Sequence record: MH752840.1
Strand: one strand, 5' to 3'
Origin: Escherichia phage vB_EcoM-Pr121LW
Length of the DNA: 64,000 nt
The position numbers and the translations under genes are program-made. The notes beneath the pieces were generated by a model that had not been told where the DNA came from, made no database searches, and worked only from the letters and a program-made list of their open reading frames with translations. Positions 4,196-13,023 of the stretch are shown here, piece by piece; position 1 is the stretch's first letter, and each line of letters begins with the position of its first letter.

Positions 4196-4957
4196 TTAAA
4201 GTTCCATAAAGTTTTCTACAGTTTCAATAAATGCTTTATCAGAGAAAGCGTCAACAGCACCGTTAAACCATACAGGGATCCCGCGATCCTCATATTGATA
4301 AAGGTCGCTACGTGAAATGCCACTTCCATCTGCACTCTGCGAGTCATACTTGTTTACAATCAGCAGTTTTGTGCCTTTACAAGTAGCAGGAAACAATTCC
4401 CAGTTAAAATTAATAACTGTGTTAGAACAACCTACCAGGATCACCATATCATTGCTTGTGAGAGATGTCAACAGGTCATACATGTCTGTATACTTAGGAG
4501 CAACCTCACCGAAGAACACTACATTAGGCTTAACCCAGGTATACTTGCCTGTATCTACCTCCGTATATCCGATATTTTTAATTACATCGTTACCTTCAGC
4601 ATCTTCGTAGGTGATTTCAGGCAAATACCCGTGGACATGTAAAATATCTTCATGTTTTACACCAGCACGCTCCAGCAAATCATCTACATTGGTGGTAAGG
4701 TTGATCACACGACCAGACCAGCGGGAATACCACTCAGCGATCCGAAGATGTGCAAGGTTAGGATCAACACTGCCCAGAGCTACACGACGTGCATTGTAAA
4801 AGTCATGCACCTTATAGTAGTTCTTGGCAAAGGTGTGGATGTTGCACACCTCATCGATGCTGAAATTCTCCCACATTGCAGTGCTACCAGATCGGAAAGT
4901 GGGAATACCAGATTCAGCGCTCAAACCGGCACCGGAGATAATAATCAGTCGTCGCAT
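4196..4957 (-). CDS. Sir2-family NAD-dependent protein (sirtuin-like)
   Basis: 253 aa; GAGLSAESGIPTFR, TTNVDDL..AG, HVHG and VVFFGE motifs; no CxxC zinc-ribbon pairs seen after the HG motif. Confidence 0.8.
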   Translation of the reverse strand: MRRLIIISGAGLSAESGIPTFRSGSTAMWENFSIDEVCNIHTFAKNYYKVHDFYNARRVALGSVDPNLAHLRIAEWYSRWSGRVINLTTNVDDLLERAGVKHEDILHVHGYLPEITYEDAEGNDVIKNIGYTEVDTGKYTWVKPNVVFFGEVAPKYTDMYDLLTSLTSNDMVILVGCSNTVINFNWELFPATCKGTKLLIVNKYDSQSADGSGISRSDLYQYEDRGIPVWFNGAVDAFSDKAFIETVENFMEL

Positions 4958-4965
4958 AAGTGTCC

Positions 4966-5316
4966 TCAGTAGATGTTTTGTTTAATCTCTATTCCAAACT
5001 TCTTGAATGAGTCAGCAGCAAGCATAAATTTACGAGCTGCCGATGGATTAGAAGTATGTACGAAAATCTTCACGTTGTCAATCACTGGAGGCTTACCGAA
5101 TACAAATTTTTCCTCCAACATGGATAGGCAATCGTATCCTTCGAATACTTCTCCTAGGTCGTTGTCCATATGCCACTCAGAAACGCGTCTGTAGAGCTTT
5201 CCCTTATCGTTAATAAAATCCATAAACTCTGAGGAATTCTTCAGCCAAATAGCGTCTGGGAGTCCATAATTTGACGGATCTCTCAAATCATCCAGCCACA
5301 CAATCCACTTCTTCAT
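4966..5316 (-). CDS. hypothetical protein (possible RNA-repair-associated small domain)
   Basis: 116-aa ORF between the Sir2 and RNA ligase genes, overlapping the ligase stop; function inferred from context only. Confidence 0.4.
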   Translation of the reverse strand: MKKWIVWLDDLRDPSNYGLPDAIWLKNSSEFMDFINDKGKLYRRVSEWHMDNDLGEVFEGYDCLSMLEEKFVFGKPPVIDNVKIFVHTSNPSAARKFMLAADSFKKFGIEIKQNIY

Positions 5317-6248
5317 TGCATATAGTCCTCGTTGTGGAAATAGTAGTCCAGTATCTCACGACGCTCCTGCTCTAATAAGCAATTCCACACATCTTCTGTA
5401 TAGTTGCTACGAATAAATTTTACCATACCGTAAAACTCTTCGTCAACACGTTTAAAGATATCATCATCCCAAATCTTCCAAGCTTTACCCCTCATTACTG
5501 CCTTCCGTGCCAGATAGTATGGAGACTTGATCTTCAGCTGCAGATCATAAGGGTAGTAAGGCTTACGAATCATATACCCTTCACCTCTTGTTTCTGCAGC
5601 TAATTCTTTTGCATAGCTGAACGGAATTTCACGCACAGTGTGAGGACGTTTTGCACCAAGGTATTTGGCAATCCCATCTAAAGCTGCTTCTGGTAGCATT
5701 ATTCCAGAATCATTATATCTGCAACCTATCAAATATGCGCCATGATCTTCCTGAACAATATGCGGATCTGAAGGGTGGCAAATTTCAAACATGAATGTCA
5801 TGTTTTCATTGCCCATAACCTTCTTGATAAGATCTAAATTACCACATTGCTCCTTGATGGTTTCTTTTGCGAGGTTACAATATGGGGAATCAAGAGACCC
5901 GGTTGTTGAGAACAATAGTTCACCTTTATGAGATGATACCACACCGAGGAATCCGTTCTTTTTCTCTACCGCAGTAACAAGTTTACTGTCCGGTAGGTTG
6001 GTGGAGTTTTCTCCTAAGTTGAATACTTTTGTGAAAGGCCATGCCACAACATTCCCCTCATTGCCAACAACAATACCTCGGCACTCCAGTAAACGCGGAG
6101 ACAAATGCCACAGATCGTTGTAGAATACTTTTCTGGCATATTTATAGATCTTTAATCCAAGATCTGGATAATACCGACTGGTTACAAGACCTTTGTCTAC
6201 TAGGTCATCTGCATTAAAATACTTCATCATACGTTCCTCATTTGTCAT
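5313..6248 (-). CDS. RNA ligase 1 (T4 RnlA-like)
   Basis: 311 aa; LSPRLLECRGIVV and FTKVFNLGEN match T4 Rnl1 N-terminal motifs as I recall them; KxNG motif I (EKKNGFLG). Confidence 0.8.
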   Translation of the reverse strand: MTNEERMMKYFNADDLVDKGLVTSRYYPDLGLKIYKYARKVFYNDLWHLSPRLLECRGIVVGNEGNVVAWPFTKVFNLGENSTNLPDSKLVTAVEKKNGFLGVVSSHKGELLFSTTGSLDSPYCNLAKETIKEQCGNLDLIKKVMGNENMTFMFEICHPSDPHIVQEDHGAYLIGCRYNDSGIMLPEAALDGIAKYLGAKRPHTVREIPFSYAKELAAETRGEGYMIRKPYYPYDLQLKIKSPYYLARKAVMRGKAWKIWDDDIFKRVDEEFYGMVKFIRSNYTEDVWNCLLEQERREILDYYFHNEDYMQ

Positions 6249-7368: not shown

Positions 7369-7719
7369 ATGAAAGATGGGGATAAGCTGCTATATCTTAA
7401 AGTCCCCCTTGAAATACTATCTATGTCAAAAGTTTTGAATGACACAACTGGGGAGGTTGTTGTTCTTGACTTGTATGACAAGATTGTATACTGCTACCTG
7501 CACAACTGGTATAAGCTTGGAGGAAATTCCCGCTTCACACCAAGCACAAGGAAAATTGCAGCAGATGTTGGGATAAAGAAAACAAAAGCAGCAGCGTGCG
7601 TTAAAACTTTAGAATGTGCAGGAGTGGTTGAAACATCCACACAAGGGAGAGGTAAAAGATGCACATTTTCCAAAGTTTTGCCACCAGAAGAAGTTATTCG
7701 AATGTCAACAACTGGTTAG
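7369..7719 (+). CDS. HTH DNA-binding protein (candidate regulator or initiator)
   Basis: 116 aa with helix-turn-helix-like segment STRKIAADVGIKKTKAAACVKTLE; sits immediately upstream of the iteron array. Confidence 0.4.
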   Translation: MKDGDKLLYLKVPLEILSMSKVLNDTTGEVVVLDLYDKIVYCYLHNWYKLGGNSRFTPSTRKIAADVGIKKTKAAACVKTLECAGVVETSTQGRGKRCTFSKVLPPEEVIRMSTTG

Positions 7720-7794
7720 ACCAGTAAAAACTTAAATATCTGTACTATAAGGGTTTGTATGTTTTATGTTCACCATGGAACAGAAACTATTAAC

Positions 7795-7875
7795 TGTCCG
7801 TGATACGGACACCACTGTCCGTCACGCGGACACATCTGCCCGTAATACGGACACTAACTGTCCGTGATACGGACA
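7795..7875. repeat. four palindromic 17-bp sites at about 21-bp spacing
   Basis: TGTCCGTGATACGGACA at 7795-7811 and 7859-7875, variants at 7816-7832 and 7837-7853. Confidence 0.8.
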
Positions 7876-8010
7876 CATAAAGAATATAACTAAAATAACT
7901 AAATAATAAAAAATAAAAGATCTAGTACTTATGGTACTAAGTACATATACTTAACTTATGTAGAATATACTAGATCCTAAGTACCATGTTTTAAATTTAT
8001 TACTTTCTAT
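7876..8010. other. AT-rich tract with local palindromes (possible unwinding element)
   Basis: Strongly AT-rich stretch right after the iterons; contains GTACTTA ... TAAGTAC inverted repeats. Confidence 0.35.
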
Positions 8011-8013
8011 AGG

Positions 8014-8258
8014 TAGTGTCGGCCCTTCATTGGCACTCGCCTACGAGGGGCGAGATGCCGGGCCTCCATAGTGCACACATGCAGGTCTGTTAACATGTGT
8101 GGGAGCGAAGCGGCGCAGGCCAAAGGCCGAGCACTAATGTGGACCACCGACGAAAGCTTGCCAGCGCCGTAAGGAGTCGGTTGAGAGCCTCCCGCGCGAG
8201 TTTGGATAAAGTTTATGTGTGGAAACGGACAATGAGGCCCCTAAATCGCTCCACAGCC
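8014..8258 (+). ncRNA. candidate structured RNA or long structured leader
   Basis: GC-rich ORF-free segment with several perfect hairpins (CTCGCC/GGCGAG; CACACATG/CATGTGTG) in an otherwise AT-rich region. Confidence 0.25.
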
Positions 8259-8947: not shown

Positions 8948-9136
8948 ATGAACAACCCGGTAGCAAAGAACTGTAATAAGTTCAACAAGTCTGCAATTCA
9001 CACTGACAGGAAAAAGAGCTGGTCTCCTGACATTGACGAGGAGCTTGAGAGTTACTTTGAAGACCTGGTCACTAATGCAGATGAGGTTGCGATTAAAGAA
9101 TACGCAGACAGGAAGGATAAGGCCGGAATCTGTTGA
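8948..9136 (+). CDS. hypothetical protein
   Basis: Small ORF; start chosen at ATG 8948 behind GAGGAG. Confidence 0.3.
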   Translation: MNNPVAKNCNKFNKSAIHTDRKKSWSPDIDEELESYFEDLVTNADEVAIKEYADRKDKAGIC

Positions 9137-9161
9137 CAAAAATAGTGTTACCTGATAAGAT
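9133..9161 (+). promoter_or_regulatory. sigma70-like promoter (TTGACA-N17-TAAGAT)
   Basis: Consensus -35 with 17-nt spacer upstream of the 9213 gene. Confidence 0.4.
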
Positions 9162-9212
9162 CTGCAATATGATGTGATGCAATTTTAACTTACGAGGTCT
9201 ACAGGTAATGCT

Positions 9213-9455
9213 ATGTTTAAGGTTAAGCTCGTTTTTCGTTCCATGAATGAGGATTATTTAGAAGATGAAGGTGAATTTCGTGCACTGGATGATGCAATAG
9301 ATTTTGCCAACGACTTAGCTTGTATGAATACAGGTTATGGGCTATGCTGTTGGGATGGTGGTGTTCAGATCGGTGATAGCAAGATCTTCTACTTCTACCC
9401 TGAGCCTGATAACAAACAAATTAAGTATGTTTTATTTATTTGTGCTTTACAATGA
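9213..9455 (+). CDS. hypothetical protein
   Basis: 80-aa ORF downstream of the promoter at 9133. Confidence 0.4.
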   Translation: MFKVKLVFRSMNEDYLEDEGEFRALDDAIDFANDLACMNTGYGLCCWDGGVQIGDSKIFYFYPEPDNKQIKYVLFICALQ

Positions 9456-9474
9456 GGTTGTTTTCGTGTATCAT
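9447..9474 (+). promoter_or_regulatory. possible promoter (TTACAA-N16-TATCAT)
   Basis: Promoter-like hexamers immediately upstream of the GC-rich structured segment. Confidence 0.25.
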
Positions 9475-9504
9475 GATGAATATCCAATTTAAAGATGAAT
9501 TTGA

Positions 9505-9743
9505 TGGCTTTATCTCCGGATGCTTTGAAACAGGGTTCGGAGAAGACTGAGTTCCCCTCAGAGGGCTTGATAGTGCACCACACTTAAAATGGTAGGGGCA
9601 GCCAGCACATGACGATGTGACCCCAGCCAACCTGTAACAAGGTCGAGCCGAAGCGCGGGTAATAGGCCTCTGGTAACCCACTTGTTGGGTCTTGCTGGTC
9701 CAGGACGCTGGACAAGTCGCAGGGAATACCACCCTGCGGCGAA
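9505..9743 (+). ncRNA. candidate structured RNA
   Basis: GC-rich intergenic segment with multiple perfect hairpins (CCCTC-A-GAGGG; CCAG-GACG-CTGG; CAGGG-AATACCA-CCCTG); only low-complexity antisense ORFs. Confidence 0.25.
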
Positions 9744-9744
9744 C

Positions 9745-9773
9745 TTGACAATCAGTATTTGCTATGATAAAAT
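9745..9773 (+). promoter_or_regulatory. sigma70-like promoter (TTGACA-N17-TAAAAT)
   Basis: Consensus hexamers with 17-nt spacer upstream of the 9802 gene. Confidence 0.5.
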
Positions 9774-9801
9774 CCACCTATCACGTGATAATGGAGGAAA
9801 C

Positions 9802-10140
9802 ATGGCGGATACAACTAAAAAGCGTCGCCGTAGAGGCAGACCTCTGAAAGAGGAGTCCAACGCCATTCAGCTAGAGAAGAACATCCTTGATATGAAGGAA
9901 TCTTTTATAGCGATGGTTCCAGAAGCTCACAAAGTTTTAAGAGAGCTGATGTTGGACCCGAAAACCAAACAAAATATTCGTCAAAGCATTGCAGAGTATG
10001 TTCTTGATAAGGCAGACCGAATGCAGGAAGAATATGATGAGATGTTTGGTGAAGAGGAAGAGGTGGTAGTAGAAGAGGCTGAAAAACCAGCACCTTTTAT
10101 GCCATTTACCACAGAAATACAACCTGTTAGCAATAGCTAA
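9802..10140 (+). CDS. AT-hook-like basic N-terminus, acidic C-terminus protein
   Basis: N-terminal KKRRRRGRPLKEE; C-terminal EEYDEMFGEEEEVVVEEAE; start at ATG 9802 behind GGAGG. Confidence 0.5.
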   Translation: MADTTKKRRRRGRPLKEESNAIQLEKNILDMKESFIAMVPEAHKVLRELMLDPKTKQNIRQSIAEYVLDKADRMQEEYDEMFGEEEEVVVEEAEKPAPFMPFTTEIQPVSNS

Positions 10141-10149
10141 AATATTTTC

Positions 10150-10178
10150 TTGACAAACTTTGCTTAACAGTGTAATAT
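10150..10178 (+). promoter_or_regulatory. sigma70-like promoter for the tRNA cluster (TTGACA-N17-TAATAT)
   Basis: Consensus hexamers about 60 nt upstream of the first tRNA. Confidence 0.5.
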
Positions 10179-10236
10179 TGTAAACATGGTCTCCCACCTT
10201 TTCTGGCGGCTAAGGTGTAAAAGAAAGCCACCCAGT

Positions 10237-10308
10237 GCCCTGTTAGCTTAGTGGATAAAGCAGCGGCCTTCTAAGCCGTTGACACTGGTTCGAGTCCAGT
10301 ACGGGGTG
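10237..10308 (+). tRNA. tRNA-Arg (anticodon TCT)
   Basis: Hand-folded cloverleaf: acceptor GCCCTGT/ACGGGGT with two G-U pairs, anticodon loop CTTCTAA, T-loop GGTTCGAGTCC, CCA encoded. Confidence 0.6.
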
Positions 10309-10442
10309 CCAAGTTCTTTTTAATGTAGCTTACTTTAGCAGAGTAAATCTTCGGCAAGTGGCGGTAACCACTTTTACCGATACCTCATAGTTAGTGGTGA
10401 GAACACTAGCTATTTTAAAAAGAATTTAAATATTAGTATTTA

Positions 10443-10527
10443 GGTGAGTTAATTCCGTAGGGGTAGCGGGGCAGACTGTAAATCTGTTATCATTGCGATT
10501 CGGGTGGTTCGACTCCATCACTCACCA
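10443..10527 (+). tRNA. tRNA-Tyr (anticodon GTA), long variable arm
   Basis: Anticodon arm GCAGACTGTAAATCTGT and variable arm resemble E. coli tRNA-Tyr; acceptor GGTGAGT/ACTCACC; CCA encoded. Confidence 0.65.
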
Positions 10528-10644
10528 CCAAATTTATATTTTTAAATGCATAAATTATACAGATAATGGCATTGATATTTATCGTCGTTTATACTAGTCA
10601 CTAACTGCTCGAAAATCAGTGTCATTATCAGTATTGTTTATAAA

Positions 10645-10732
10645 AGAGGGTAGGGAGCAATGGTGCTCAAGCGGTCTTGAAAACCGTCCCGTTGAGGATG
10701 ACTCGATGATGGTTCGATTCCATTACCCTCTG
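10645..10732 (+). tRNA. tRNA-Ser (anticodon TGA), long variable arm
   Basis: Acceptor AGAGGGT/ACCCTCT, anticodon loop CTTGAAA, T-loop GGTTCGATTCC, CCA encoded. Confidence 0.6.
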
Positions 10733-10833
10733 CCATATTGTTGACCTTGTAATTAAGCGAAAGCCGGAAGCAGAACCGGATTATCAAATGTTACAGTCGT
10801 CATCGCCGACTAGCAACATTGTCAACATACTGA

Positions 10834-10930
10834 GCTAGGTAAGCCCTTTGGCAAGGGCGAGGATTTTTAATCCTGAAAATAGACGAGGTAGTCGTTGAAT
10901 ACATAGGTGGTTCGATTCCACCACCTAGCA
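10834..10930 (+). tRNA. atypical tRNA-like element (anticodon possibly TTT; about 29-nt variable region)
   Basis: Acceptor GCTAGGT/ACCTAGC, D-arm GCCC..GGGC and T-arm GGTGGTTCGATTCCACC fold, but anticodon stem is 4 bp plus a mismatch and total length about 97 nt. Confidence 0.3.
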
Positions 10931-10937
10931 CCTTTTT

Positions 10938-11010
10938 GCTGATGTAGCACAATTGGTAGTGCAATTGATTTGTAATCAATAGGTTGCAGGTTCAAGTCCT
11001 GCCATCAGCA
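10938..11010 (+). tRNA. tRNA-Thr (anticodon TGT)
   Basis: Acceptor GCTGATG/CATCAGC, D-stem GCAC/GTGC, anticodon arm ATTGA-TTTGTAA-TCAAT, T-arm GCAGG-TTCAAGT-CCTGC, CCA encoded. Confidence 0.7.
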
Positions 11011-11014
11011 CCAT

Positions 11015-11086
11015 GGCCCTGTAGCTGGAAGGTTCAAGCAAGCGACTCATAATCGCCAGACGGTGGTTCAATTCCACCCAGGGCCA
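11015..11086 (+). tRNA. tRNA-Met or Ile2 (anticodon CAT)
   Basis: Acceptor GGCCCTG/CAGGGCC, anticodon loop CTCATAA, T-loop GGTTCAATTCC, CCA encoded. Confidence 0.65.
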
Positions 11087-11100
11087 CCAAATAGTAAATA

Positions 11101-11174
11101 CTCCGCGTAGCTCAGCTTGGTAGAGCGCCTGATTTGGGATCAGGAGGTCGAGTGTTCGAATCACTCCGTGGAGA
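11101..11174 (+). tRNA. tRNA-Pro (anticodon TGG)
   Basis: Acceptor CTCCGCG/CGTGGAG, anticodon arm CCTGA-TTTGGGA-TCAGG, T-loop GTTCGAATC, CCA encoded. Confidence 0.7.
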
Positions 11175-11223
11175 CCACTTTCAGTTATACTTTAAACATA
11201 TACACACAAAAGGAACCTTTAAA

Positions 11224-12281: not shown

Positions 12282-12706
12282 TGTCTAAGATTTACGGACC
12301 GTGTTCTGAAAAGCAGAAGATGATCCTCGAAAACGATGCAGATATTTTGGTAATCGGCGGTGCCGCAGGGTCTGGCAAGTCGTTCCTCTTGCAGTTGATG
12401 CCGCTTAAAATTATCGATGACCCCCACAGCTCTGTGGTTATGTTCCGAAGAACAACCCCACAGTTGGAAGGTGAGGGTGGACTATGGCCTAAAGCAGTAG
12501 CTATTTATAGCGATCTGCCTGAAAACATTAAGCCAAAGTTCAGAGAGAAGGATCATAAGTTCATTTTTCCACGGTTTGATCCGAACACTGGCAAGTGGGA
12601 TAGAAGCAAAAAGGGAGCTGTTGTAAAATACTGCCACATGGAGTATGTACAAGATAAGCTTAACCATCAAGGGCTTGAGTACACCATGGTTTGCTTCGAT
12701 GAGGGT
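12281..12706 (+). CDS. terL: terminase large subunit, exon 1 (ATPase domain)
   Basis: Walker A GGAAGSGKS, Walker B-like MVCFDE; ORF stops at TAA 12707-12709, taken as the first intron codon. Confidence 0.7.
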
Positions 12707-13023
12707 TAATTTGTAGCTCTCGTAAAACCTCCCTAATTGCGGGGAAATCTTTACTATTAATACCACCAACCTGTCATGGTAACATGATAGAGGCTTCGAA
12801 GAGAGATCGAAGGTATGGTAACAGTGTGTTAATTTAGATAATCCGCAGCGAAGCATCCGAGAGGATGAACGTTCAACGACTAGTCGAAAGACGTAGAATC
12901 AAGCGATTCGAAACGGGAGGGTAAGCGGTTGTTGTCGCTTATAAGATATAGTCTGGTCTGCATGGAGACATGCAGCTGCCTGAAAAATGGCGGGGCAAGA
13001 CTAGCGACCTTGCCCGAACATAG
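12707..13023 (+). ncRNA. group I self-splicing intron (no internal ORF); boundaries approximate
   Basis: Conserved core motifs GTTCAACGACTAGTCG (12871-12886) and AAGATATAGTC (12943-12953); splits terL; 5' exon ends in U, intron ends in G. Confidence 0.6.

Follow-up and report, generated by a model that had tools for sequence, protein, structure and literature searches.

The GC-rich interval from about 9551 to 9744 of the window (the entire 64,000-nt stretch of Escherichia phage vB_EcoM-Pr121LW DNA analyzed here) appears to specify a structured RNA on the + strand, which we predict is excised as a stable small RNA and whose central three-way junction would act as a recognition module. We place the probability of this reading at about 0.6. 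The first-pass annotation had proposed a candidate small RNA gene that included the sequence just upstream. What stands of that proposal is a structured, noncoding RNA-like element of ~195 nt (9551 to 9744); the first ~100 nt of the originally proposed interval are probably coding.

The covariance model R1 places a 42-nt three-way-junction core at 9626 to 9667 (+ strand), its sole match in the window (61.6 bits; E value of 3e-16). Helix P1 is formed by A9629-U9663, C9628-G9665, C9627-G9666, and G9626-C9667, with a bulged A9664. Throughout the family, the first P1 pair abuts P2 and is followed by one bulged purine on the 3′ strand (a G in 64 of 74 copies), and the window copy fits this pattern, its P1 reaching the 4-bp family minimum and carrying one bulged purine. 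P2 (9630 to 9633 with 9640 to 9643; loop GUAACA) abuts P1 and has the family form ACCU-GURRNA-AGGU, in which the GURRNA hexaloop is replaced by GAAA in one copy (L212). J2/3 is CGA (C9644 to A9646; C(N)A in the family), P3 pairs 9647 and 9648 with 9655 and 9656 (GC(C)...GC; 2 to 3 bp with a 3- to 6-nt loop in the family), and J3/1 is GGGUAA (9657 to 9662), one G longer than the GGUAA of the family. The window thus shows the characteristic succession of C(N)A, a P3 of 2 to 3 bp, and then GGUAA. Among copies, P1 and P3 vary freely, in contrast to near-invariant junction nucleotides and a near-invariant P2 sequence. Isolated cores have folding z scores of ~0, and minimum-free-energy folding fails to recover the junction.

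Folding energy is also unexceptional for the larger region (9540 to 9745), where z scores of −1.64 and −1.25 for the + and − strands, respectively, are not beyond chance, so that any argument for an RNA has to come from sequence comparison. We collected 75 non-redundant copies of the core, 74 of which were parsed for pair statistics. For the first 28 sequences, 95.5% of cells were paired, versus 79% in column shuffles; the covariation score was 0.411 versus 0.099, none of 500 shuffles was as good, and sliding the partners cut pairing to ≤53%. An independent model-aligned set gave a similar picture (97.2% paired versus 77%). Over the 74 copies, the three inner P1 pairs are formed in 100%, 100%, and 98.6%, with 5, 5, and 3 pair types, respectively, and the P2 pairs are formed in 100%, with U-A to A-U and U-A to C-G exchanges. 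The second P3 pair is C-G in 55, U-A in 11, and G-C in 4 of 70 copies; P3 was located by a best-register search (≥2 bp), so that its pairing is true by construction, and the remaining 4 of 74 copies have none. G·U exceeded A·C by 27 to 3 among the 74 copies, indicating that the folded strand is the transcribed strand. Taken as a comparison of sequences, these data show that the junction is maintained by compensatory evolution. Conservation and covariation in relatives had been named in the first-pass annotation as the comparative check on its proposal, and both are found: the region is conserved, with many compensatory changes in close relatives and in unrelated phage families.

The lead to this family was a sensitive BLAST search with 9540 to 9745, which was widened by pattern scans and with the covariance model. 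The BLAST search returned 118 Vequintavirus records and >450 T4-like genomes, the latter matching only 9623 to 9666 of the window, at 85 to 90% identity and in unannotated DNA. In T4 itself, the copy lies 37 nt after the denV stop codon and upstream of vs.8; the core is present in several T4-like subgroups, always upstream of vs.8. In hundreds of T4-like phages, the copy between denV and vs.8 is ~87% identical to the window core. Further copies were found in diverged rV5-like relatives (L031, L082 to L084, and L216), in 44- to 47-kb phages of E. coli and Klebsiella (EcoPhCCP1 and L006-type contigs related to Klebsiella phage KP591P1), in Pseudomonas syringae phage KIL1, and in a 360-kb jumbo-phage contig along with many other IMG/VR and metagenomic viral contigs. 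By sequence, then, the core is shown to be common to many unrelated virulent phages of Gammaproteobacteria, T4 included. A host origin was considered and rejected: the core had no match in 5,426 E. coli genomes, and a pattern scan of 185,579 species genomes gave 23 matches, none with P2, which represent chance matches within GC-rich coding sequence.

In the window, the core is embedded in the ~195-nt noncoding element (~9551 to 9744; + strand). The island of high GC content noted earlier is real, with 55 to 59% GC at 9550 to 9749 compared with 28 to 45% on the flanks and mostly 36 to 45% in this genome segment. The element is 92 to 100% conserved across the 118 Vequintavirus records and aligns with diverged rV5-like relatives, compensatory changes included. 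The perfect stems that had been described are present, a few bases away from the positions given for them: CCCTC-A-GAGGG is at 9555 to 9565 rather than 9559 to 9569, CCAG-GACG-CTGG is at 9700 to 9711 (in a longer form, GTCCAG-GACG-CTGGAC, at 9698 to 9713), and CAGGG-AATACCA-CCCTG is at 9720 to 9736 (in a longer form, at 9719 to 9737).

The 5′ domain (9551 to 9599; + strand) is predicted to fold as a closing stem (GUUCC/GGGGC) around three short hairpins. It is almost invariant between Vequintavirus and L031-type relatives, despite diverged neighboring genes, and its predicted closing stem shows one-sided U·G to U-A changes. Helix P0 (9601 to 9674; + strand), in which GCCAG at 9601 to 9605 pairs with CUGGU at 9670 to 9674, encloses hairpin 1 and the core. 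Its counterpart in L031, GUGAGGG/CCCUUAC, differs in sequence yet is complementary; P0 was read by eye from the sequences, and RNAalifold pairs this region differently (alignment columns 75 to 77 with 129 to 131, corresponding to 9620 to 9622 with 9672 to 9674 of the window). Hairpin 1 (9606 to 9619; + strand; CACAU-GACG-AUGUG) carries compensatory changes: in L031-type relatives it reads CUACG-GACG-CGUAG, with four of the five pairs changed on both sides and the first C-G pair and the loop retained. Other lineages have a GNRA-capped hairpin 6 to 9 nt before P1.

Three + strand hairpins follow the core. The first (9676 to 9690; ACCCA-CUUGU-UGGGU) becomes UCCCA...UGGGA in L081, a compensatory A-U to U-A change. 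The second (9698 to 9713; GUCCAG-GACG-CUGGAC) is GCUCAG-GACG-CUGAGC in L081, with two compensatory double changes, and contains a U·G wobble in L010 and L177. Variation in the 3′ hairpin (9719 to 9737; GCAGGG-AAUACCA-CCCUGC) is confined to the loop in L081 and L177. No U-run follows this hairpin and it was not called as a terminator, nor was any intrinsic terminator called inside or after the element in the window.

The 5′ boundary of the element is set by a small gene. Only antisense open reading frames (ORFs) had been reported for this interval; this does not hold, as a sense ORF of 33 amino acids (aa) occupies 9452 to 9550 (+ strand), its ATGA overlapping the stop codon of the gene at 9213 to 9455. 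This ORF is annotated as a coding sequence (CDS) in MiataMamis and rV5_ev168. Across L081, L010, and rV5, it shows five synonymous third-position changes and last-codon changes only, and in L031-type relatives it is cut down to 8 codons. Judged by these sequence features, 9452 to 9550 is probably a real small protein gene, which would place the start of the noncoding element proper near 9551.

The same region holds the promoter-like site that had been assigned to the element. Its hexamers are present (TTTACA-N17-TATCAT; + strand; 10 of 12 matches), at 9446 to 9474 rather than 9447 to 9474, but its quality is at chance level: there are 15 promoter-like sites of comparable quality in 5 kb, versus 10.8 ± 3.4 in shuffles. 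The site lies inside coding sequence, overlapping both the stop codon of the gene at 9213 to 9455 and the ATG of the 33-aa ORF. It is conserved in Vequintavirus (with TATTAT in L081) and absent from L031-type relatives, which instead have a consensus promoter (TTGACA-N17-TATACT) ~40 nt further down, ~10 nt upstream of the conserved 5′ domain. A promoter serving the element is thus seen repeatedly, though the site at 9446 to 9474 is itself unproven, and from these sequences a dedicated promoter for the element is plausible.

At its 3′ end, the element stops just before the promoter of the next gene, as had been noted. This strong sigma-70 promoter (9745 to 9773; + strand), named P74 in the rV5 annotation, has an extended −10 TG and scores 11 of 12 matches; it bounds the element at 9744 and drives the gene at 9802 to 10140 (+ strand). 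The product of that gene has 112 aa, with an N-terminal KKRRRRGRP (AT-hook or arginine-rich-like) and an acidic tail, and had no match in Pfam; Pfam searches with the proteins neighboring the element gave no functional lead. Beyond this gene lies the tRNA cluster (10237 to 11177), on the + strand like the element. From the core end to tRNA-Arg, downstream on the same strand, the distance is 553 nt, with the one small gene between.

The genome is not of the T4 type, as had been assumed. Positions 9100 to 10200 are 95 to 100% identical to 118 GenBank phage records, all of rV5-like myoviruses (Vequintavirus), and both taxonomy and gene order agree with rV5; the Campylobacter phage labels on some of these records are wrong. 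The rV5-like order runs from polynucleotide kinase/phosphatase (labeled "ATPase" in another record), phosphoesterase, a "replication initiation protein," and small genes to the tRNA cluster, spanins, and an intron-containing terminase.

Several other features of the locus were noted. In the interval from 10312 to 10527, a tRNA-Tyr (GTA) at 10443 to 10527 was found by Rfam (39 bits) and missed by ARAGORN; a 130-nt insert parts it from tRNA-Arg, where the rV5 spacer is 5 nt. An odd tRNA-like gene of 99 nt at 10834 to 10932 is reported by ARAGORN as "tRNA-???" with a 4-base anticodon, atcc (Rfam tRNA, 37 bits). A group I intron in the terminase large-subunit gene (12697 to 12975; Rfam, 84 bits) fits the joined terminase CDS in rV5 records. 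Directly 3′ of the gene at 7369 to 7719 (HTH_36/DUF6945; the "replication initiation protein" in rV5) are four 21- to 22-nt iterons (TAACTGTCCGTGATACGGACAC) at 7791 to 7876, followed by a stretch of 21 to 26% GC at 7880 to 8000; together these look like a replication origin. Next to it, at 8010 to 8250, is a first GC-rich intergenic island (54 to 65% GC), which matched neither Rfam nor the R1 core model. A three-way alignment hinted that this island might be a paralogue of the element, a possibility that we rejected: R1 finds a single copy in the window, and the island is found only in Vequintavirus loci (90 to 98% identity, with a ~20-nt indel). The two regions have only the string AUAGUGCAC in common.

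Searches against known RNA families gave no identity for the element. Rfam 15 returned nothing in 9447 to 9800 in a 7-kb search at an E value of ≤1, only a chance snR13 match (15 bits) in a search of 361 nt at an E value of ≤10, and no match for the T4 copy at an E value of ≤10. In particular, no covariance model of a known ribozyme or riboswitch family matched the window region or the T4 copy even at an E value of ≤10, and neither ARAGORN nor Rfam found a tRNA-like match in 9447 to 9800. Neither the core sequence nor a description of it came up in the literature searched by locus, phage group, and literal sequence. The core defines an RNA family not described before, whose general kind, phage small RNAs associated with tRNA clusters, is known.

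Several alternative readings of the core were also discarded. UAAUG does not serve as a start codon (of a small ORF or of vs.8), because its U covaries with the base before P2 (as A-U, U-A, C-G, and G-C). A helix between GAGCC and the P1 3′ strand, suggested by minimum-free-energy folding, is not kept where P1 varies (L008, L017, and L022). Pairing of the P2 loop (GUAA/GUGA) with a downstream UUAC/UCAC as a pseudoknot covaries within the T4-like subgroups L022, L036, and L037 but is not general. Likenesses to the 23S rRNA 1095 loop (GUAAUA), the L11-binding region, the Alu-domain UGUAAU, the twister CCAAGC-CGG-UAA string, RNase P RNA, and 5S rRNA were treated as coincidence, since they involve variable positions or a different helix order and no model matched.

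A precedent for how such an RNA could be expressed comes from Pseudomonas phage PAK_P3 (Nankokuvirus), which produces two late RNAs in abundance, ncRNA1 (~210 nt) and ncRNA2 (~120 nt; located between two tRNAs). RNA-Seq, ONT-cappable-seq, and northern blotting showed that both lack start sites of their own and are processed from longer transcripts (PMC4933390, PMC10914365). The PAK_P3 and rV5 loci share the order of a gene, a GC-rich structured RNA ending at a promoter, a small gene, a promoter, tRNAs, and terminase, and ncRNA1 (1249 to 1459 of L253, equivalent to PAK_P3 85248 to 85458) fills the same syntenic slot as the rV5 element. Unlike the latter, PAK_P3 lacks the three-way-junction core (best R1 score, 7.6 bits), and ncRNA1 and the rV5 5′ domain have only the short loop string CACCACAC in common. 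We therefore rejected ncRNA1 and ncRNA2 as homologues; the precedent, which rests on position, supports the mode of expression and not homology.

The analogy to T4 stable RNAs drawn in the first-pass annotation holds in part. Examples of small phage RNAs that accompany tRNA genes date back to the 1970s, when the T4 band C and D RNAs became known. These T4 species 1 and 2 (rnaC and rnaD) are co-transcribed with tRNAs and have unknown function, and the element resembles them in position, adjoining a tRNA cluster on the same strand. It is not homologous to them: there is no similarity in sequence or structure, R1 scores ≤11.7 bits in the T4 tRNA region (rnaC included), where the core is absent, and rnaC ends in a tRNA-like T-arm, which the element lacks. 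T4's own core copy lies outside its tRNA region, between denV and vs.8.

ROOL and GOLLD are structured RNAs of unknown function that are typically found next to tRNA genes in phages and prophages. They are reported to self-assemble (PMC12286853). At 500 to 800 nt and in other host groups, they differ from the 42-nt core within an RNA of ~190 nt. Small three-way-junction ribozymes and riboswitch aptamers (hammerhead, purine, and twister-sister) have similarly short helices and conserved joining strands, but the core contains none of the signature sequences of these or other such RNAs. CC:GG and CU:AG steps are classical receptors for GUAA and GUGA loops, and the P2 helix carries both steps; with the GURRNA P2 loop (GAAA in L212) and the often GNRA-capped upstream hairpins, this amounts to no more than a resemblance to the GNRA tetraloop and tandem C-G receptor contacts of group I and II introns.

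The genomic setting of the copies bears on function. Outside the T4-like phages, in which the core is not near tRNAs, it usually belongs to a tRNA gene cluster. A tRNA lies within 1 kb in 30 copies, on the same strand in 30 of 30, and its distance from the core varies from 24 to 800 nt (only 24 to 150 nt in some). An intrinsic terminator follows the core by 4 to 109 nt in four lineages, and tandem copies occur in three (L041, L109/L152, and L212). In EcoPhCCP1, the core sits after the endolysin gene, and in L006-type contigs it is within an array of long-stemmed RNA units and tRNAs that has its own promoter. The L006 array (4777 to 5960; minus strand), from the 45-kb Klebsiella/E. coli phages, consists of the promoter, structured RNA units, and then four tRNAs; each unit is closed by a ~17-bp stem, one unit bears the core, and the array is inserted between tail and head genes, in the antisense direction to the structural genes around it. 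The downstream neighbor thus differs by lineage, being a promoter, a terminator, a tRNA, or vs.8, and such variety speaks against a leader dedicated to the regulation of a single kind of gene.

In the mechanism that we propose, the element would be transcribed by read-through from upstream promoters, at 9133 to 9161 and possibly at 9446 to 9474. Since no terminator closes it and the next promoter marks its end, it would be cut from a long transcript and released as a stable small RNA of ~190 nt, by analogy with the PAK_P3 ncRNAs. The near-invariant junction and P2 beside freely varying P1 and P3, the weak fold, the tandem copies, and the copies preceding terminators suggest a recognition module; antisense regulation, or switching of the downstream gene, fits them less well. 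Its conserved partner could be a component, protein or RNA, of the tRNA or translation apparatus; alternatively, the core might contact another copy of itself through its GNRA-like loop and CC:GG helix.

A bolder idea, which we offer tentatively, is that the core is a new class of RNA module directed at tRNA-targeting defenses or at the host's tRNA or translation machinery, whether as a decoy, a ribozyme, or a self-assembling RNA. For a decoy, the relevant feature would be the CUGUAA/CUGUGA loop, which resembles in sequence the anticodon loops of tRNA-Tyr and tRNA-His. Those loops are recognized by several nucleases and by the queuosine-inserting enzyme. Self-assembly might proceed through GNRA-like loop and helix contacts.

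Some of the same observations could be explained by a cis-acting RNA, either a 3′-UTR or intercistronic stabilizer, a processing signal, or a riboswitch- or attenuator-like leader of vs.8 or the tRNA operon, and this we regard as unlikely. Such a role would account for the place immediately upstream of vs.8, which is fixed in all T4-like subgroups, and for the constant co-orientation with local transcription; the small junction, its joining strands invariant, is reminiscent of riboswitch aptamers, and the core occurs in tandem as some riboswitches do. However, the downstream neighbors (promoter, terminators, tRNAs, and the post-endolysin region in EcoPhCCP1) do not represent the constant gene class expected of a riboswitch, there is no conserved expression platform, and no Rfam riboswitch matched at an E value of ≤10.

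A new small self-cleaving ribozyme that helps cut polycistronic tRNA or mRNA precursors seems decidedly improbable, although near-invariant junction nucleotides flanked by freely varying helices, and tandem copies, would fit one. HDV-like theta ribozymes are small ribozymes associated with phage tRNA genes, and the core shares that association. Against this, no known family matched, we can name no candidate cleavage site, and the distance from core to tRNA (24 to 800 nt) is variable.

The element is very improbable as a hairpin site acting at the level of DNA, in replication, in recombination, or for a homing endonuclease. The preponderance of G·U over A·C (27 to 3) means that only the transcribed strand can fold, orientation always follows transcription, and the recognition site of a DNA enzyme needs no compensatory helices. 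These points outweigh what such a site would explain, namely, the spread of a near-identical core between unrelated phages of the same hosts, an ori-like iteron region 1.7 kb upstream, and the location at tRNA clusters, which are known homing hot spots (SegB in T4).

A minus-strand protein is extremely improbable: both candidate ORFs exist (113 aa, 9436 to 9777; 55 aa, 9584 to 9751) and the 55-aa frame is annotated in MiataMamis, but the frames are lost in L031-type relatives, which have different, shorter ORFs, substitutions are paired across helices and not concentrated at third positions, most records annotate nothing there, and long chance ORFs are common in GC-rich DNA. The spurious "hypothetical protein" annotations that lie over the element in several GenBank records can be removed.

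The reading that we favor, a structured RNA excised from a longer transcript and bearing a recognition-module junction, supplies a precisely defined, covariation-supported RNA module that is now recognized in T4, in rV5-like therapeutic phages, and in Klebsiella and Pseudomonas phages. Its presence in these phages makes the question of its function directly testable in tractable systems.
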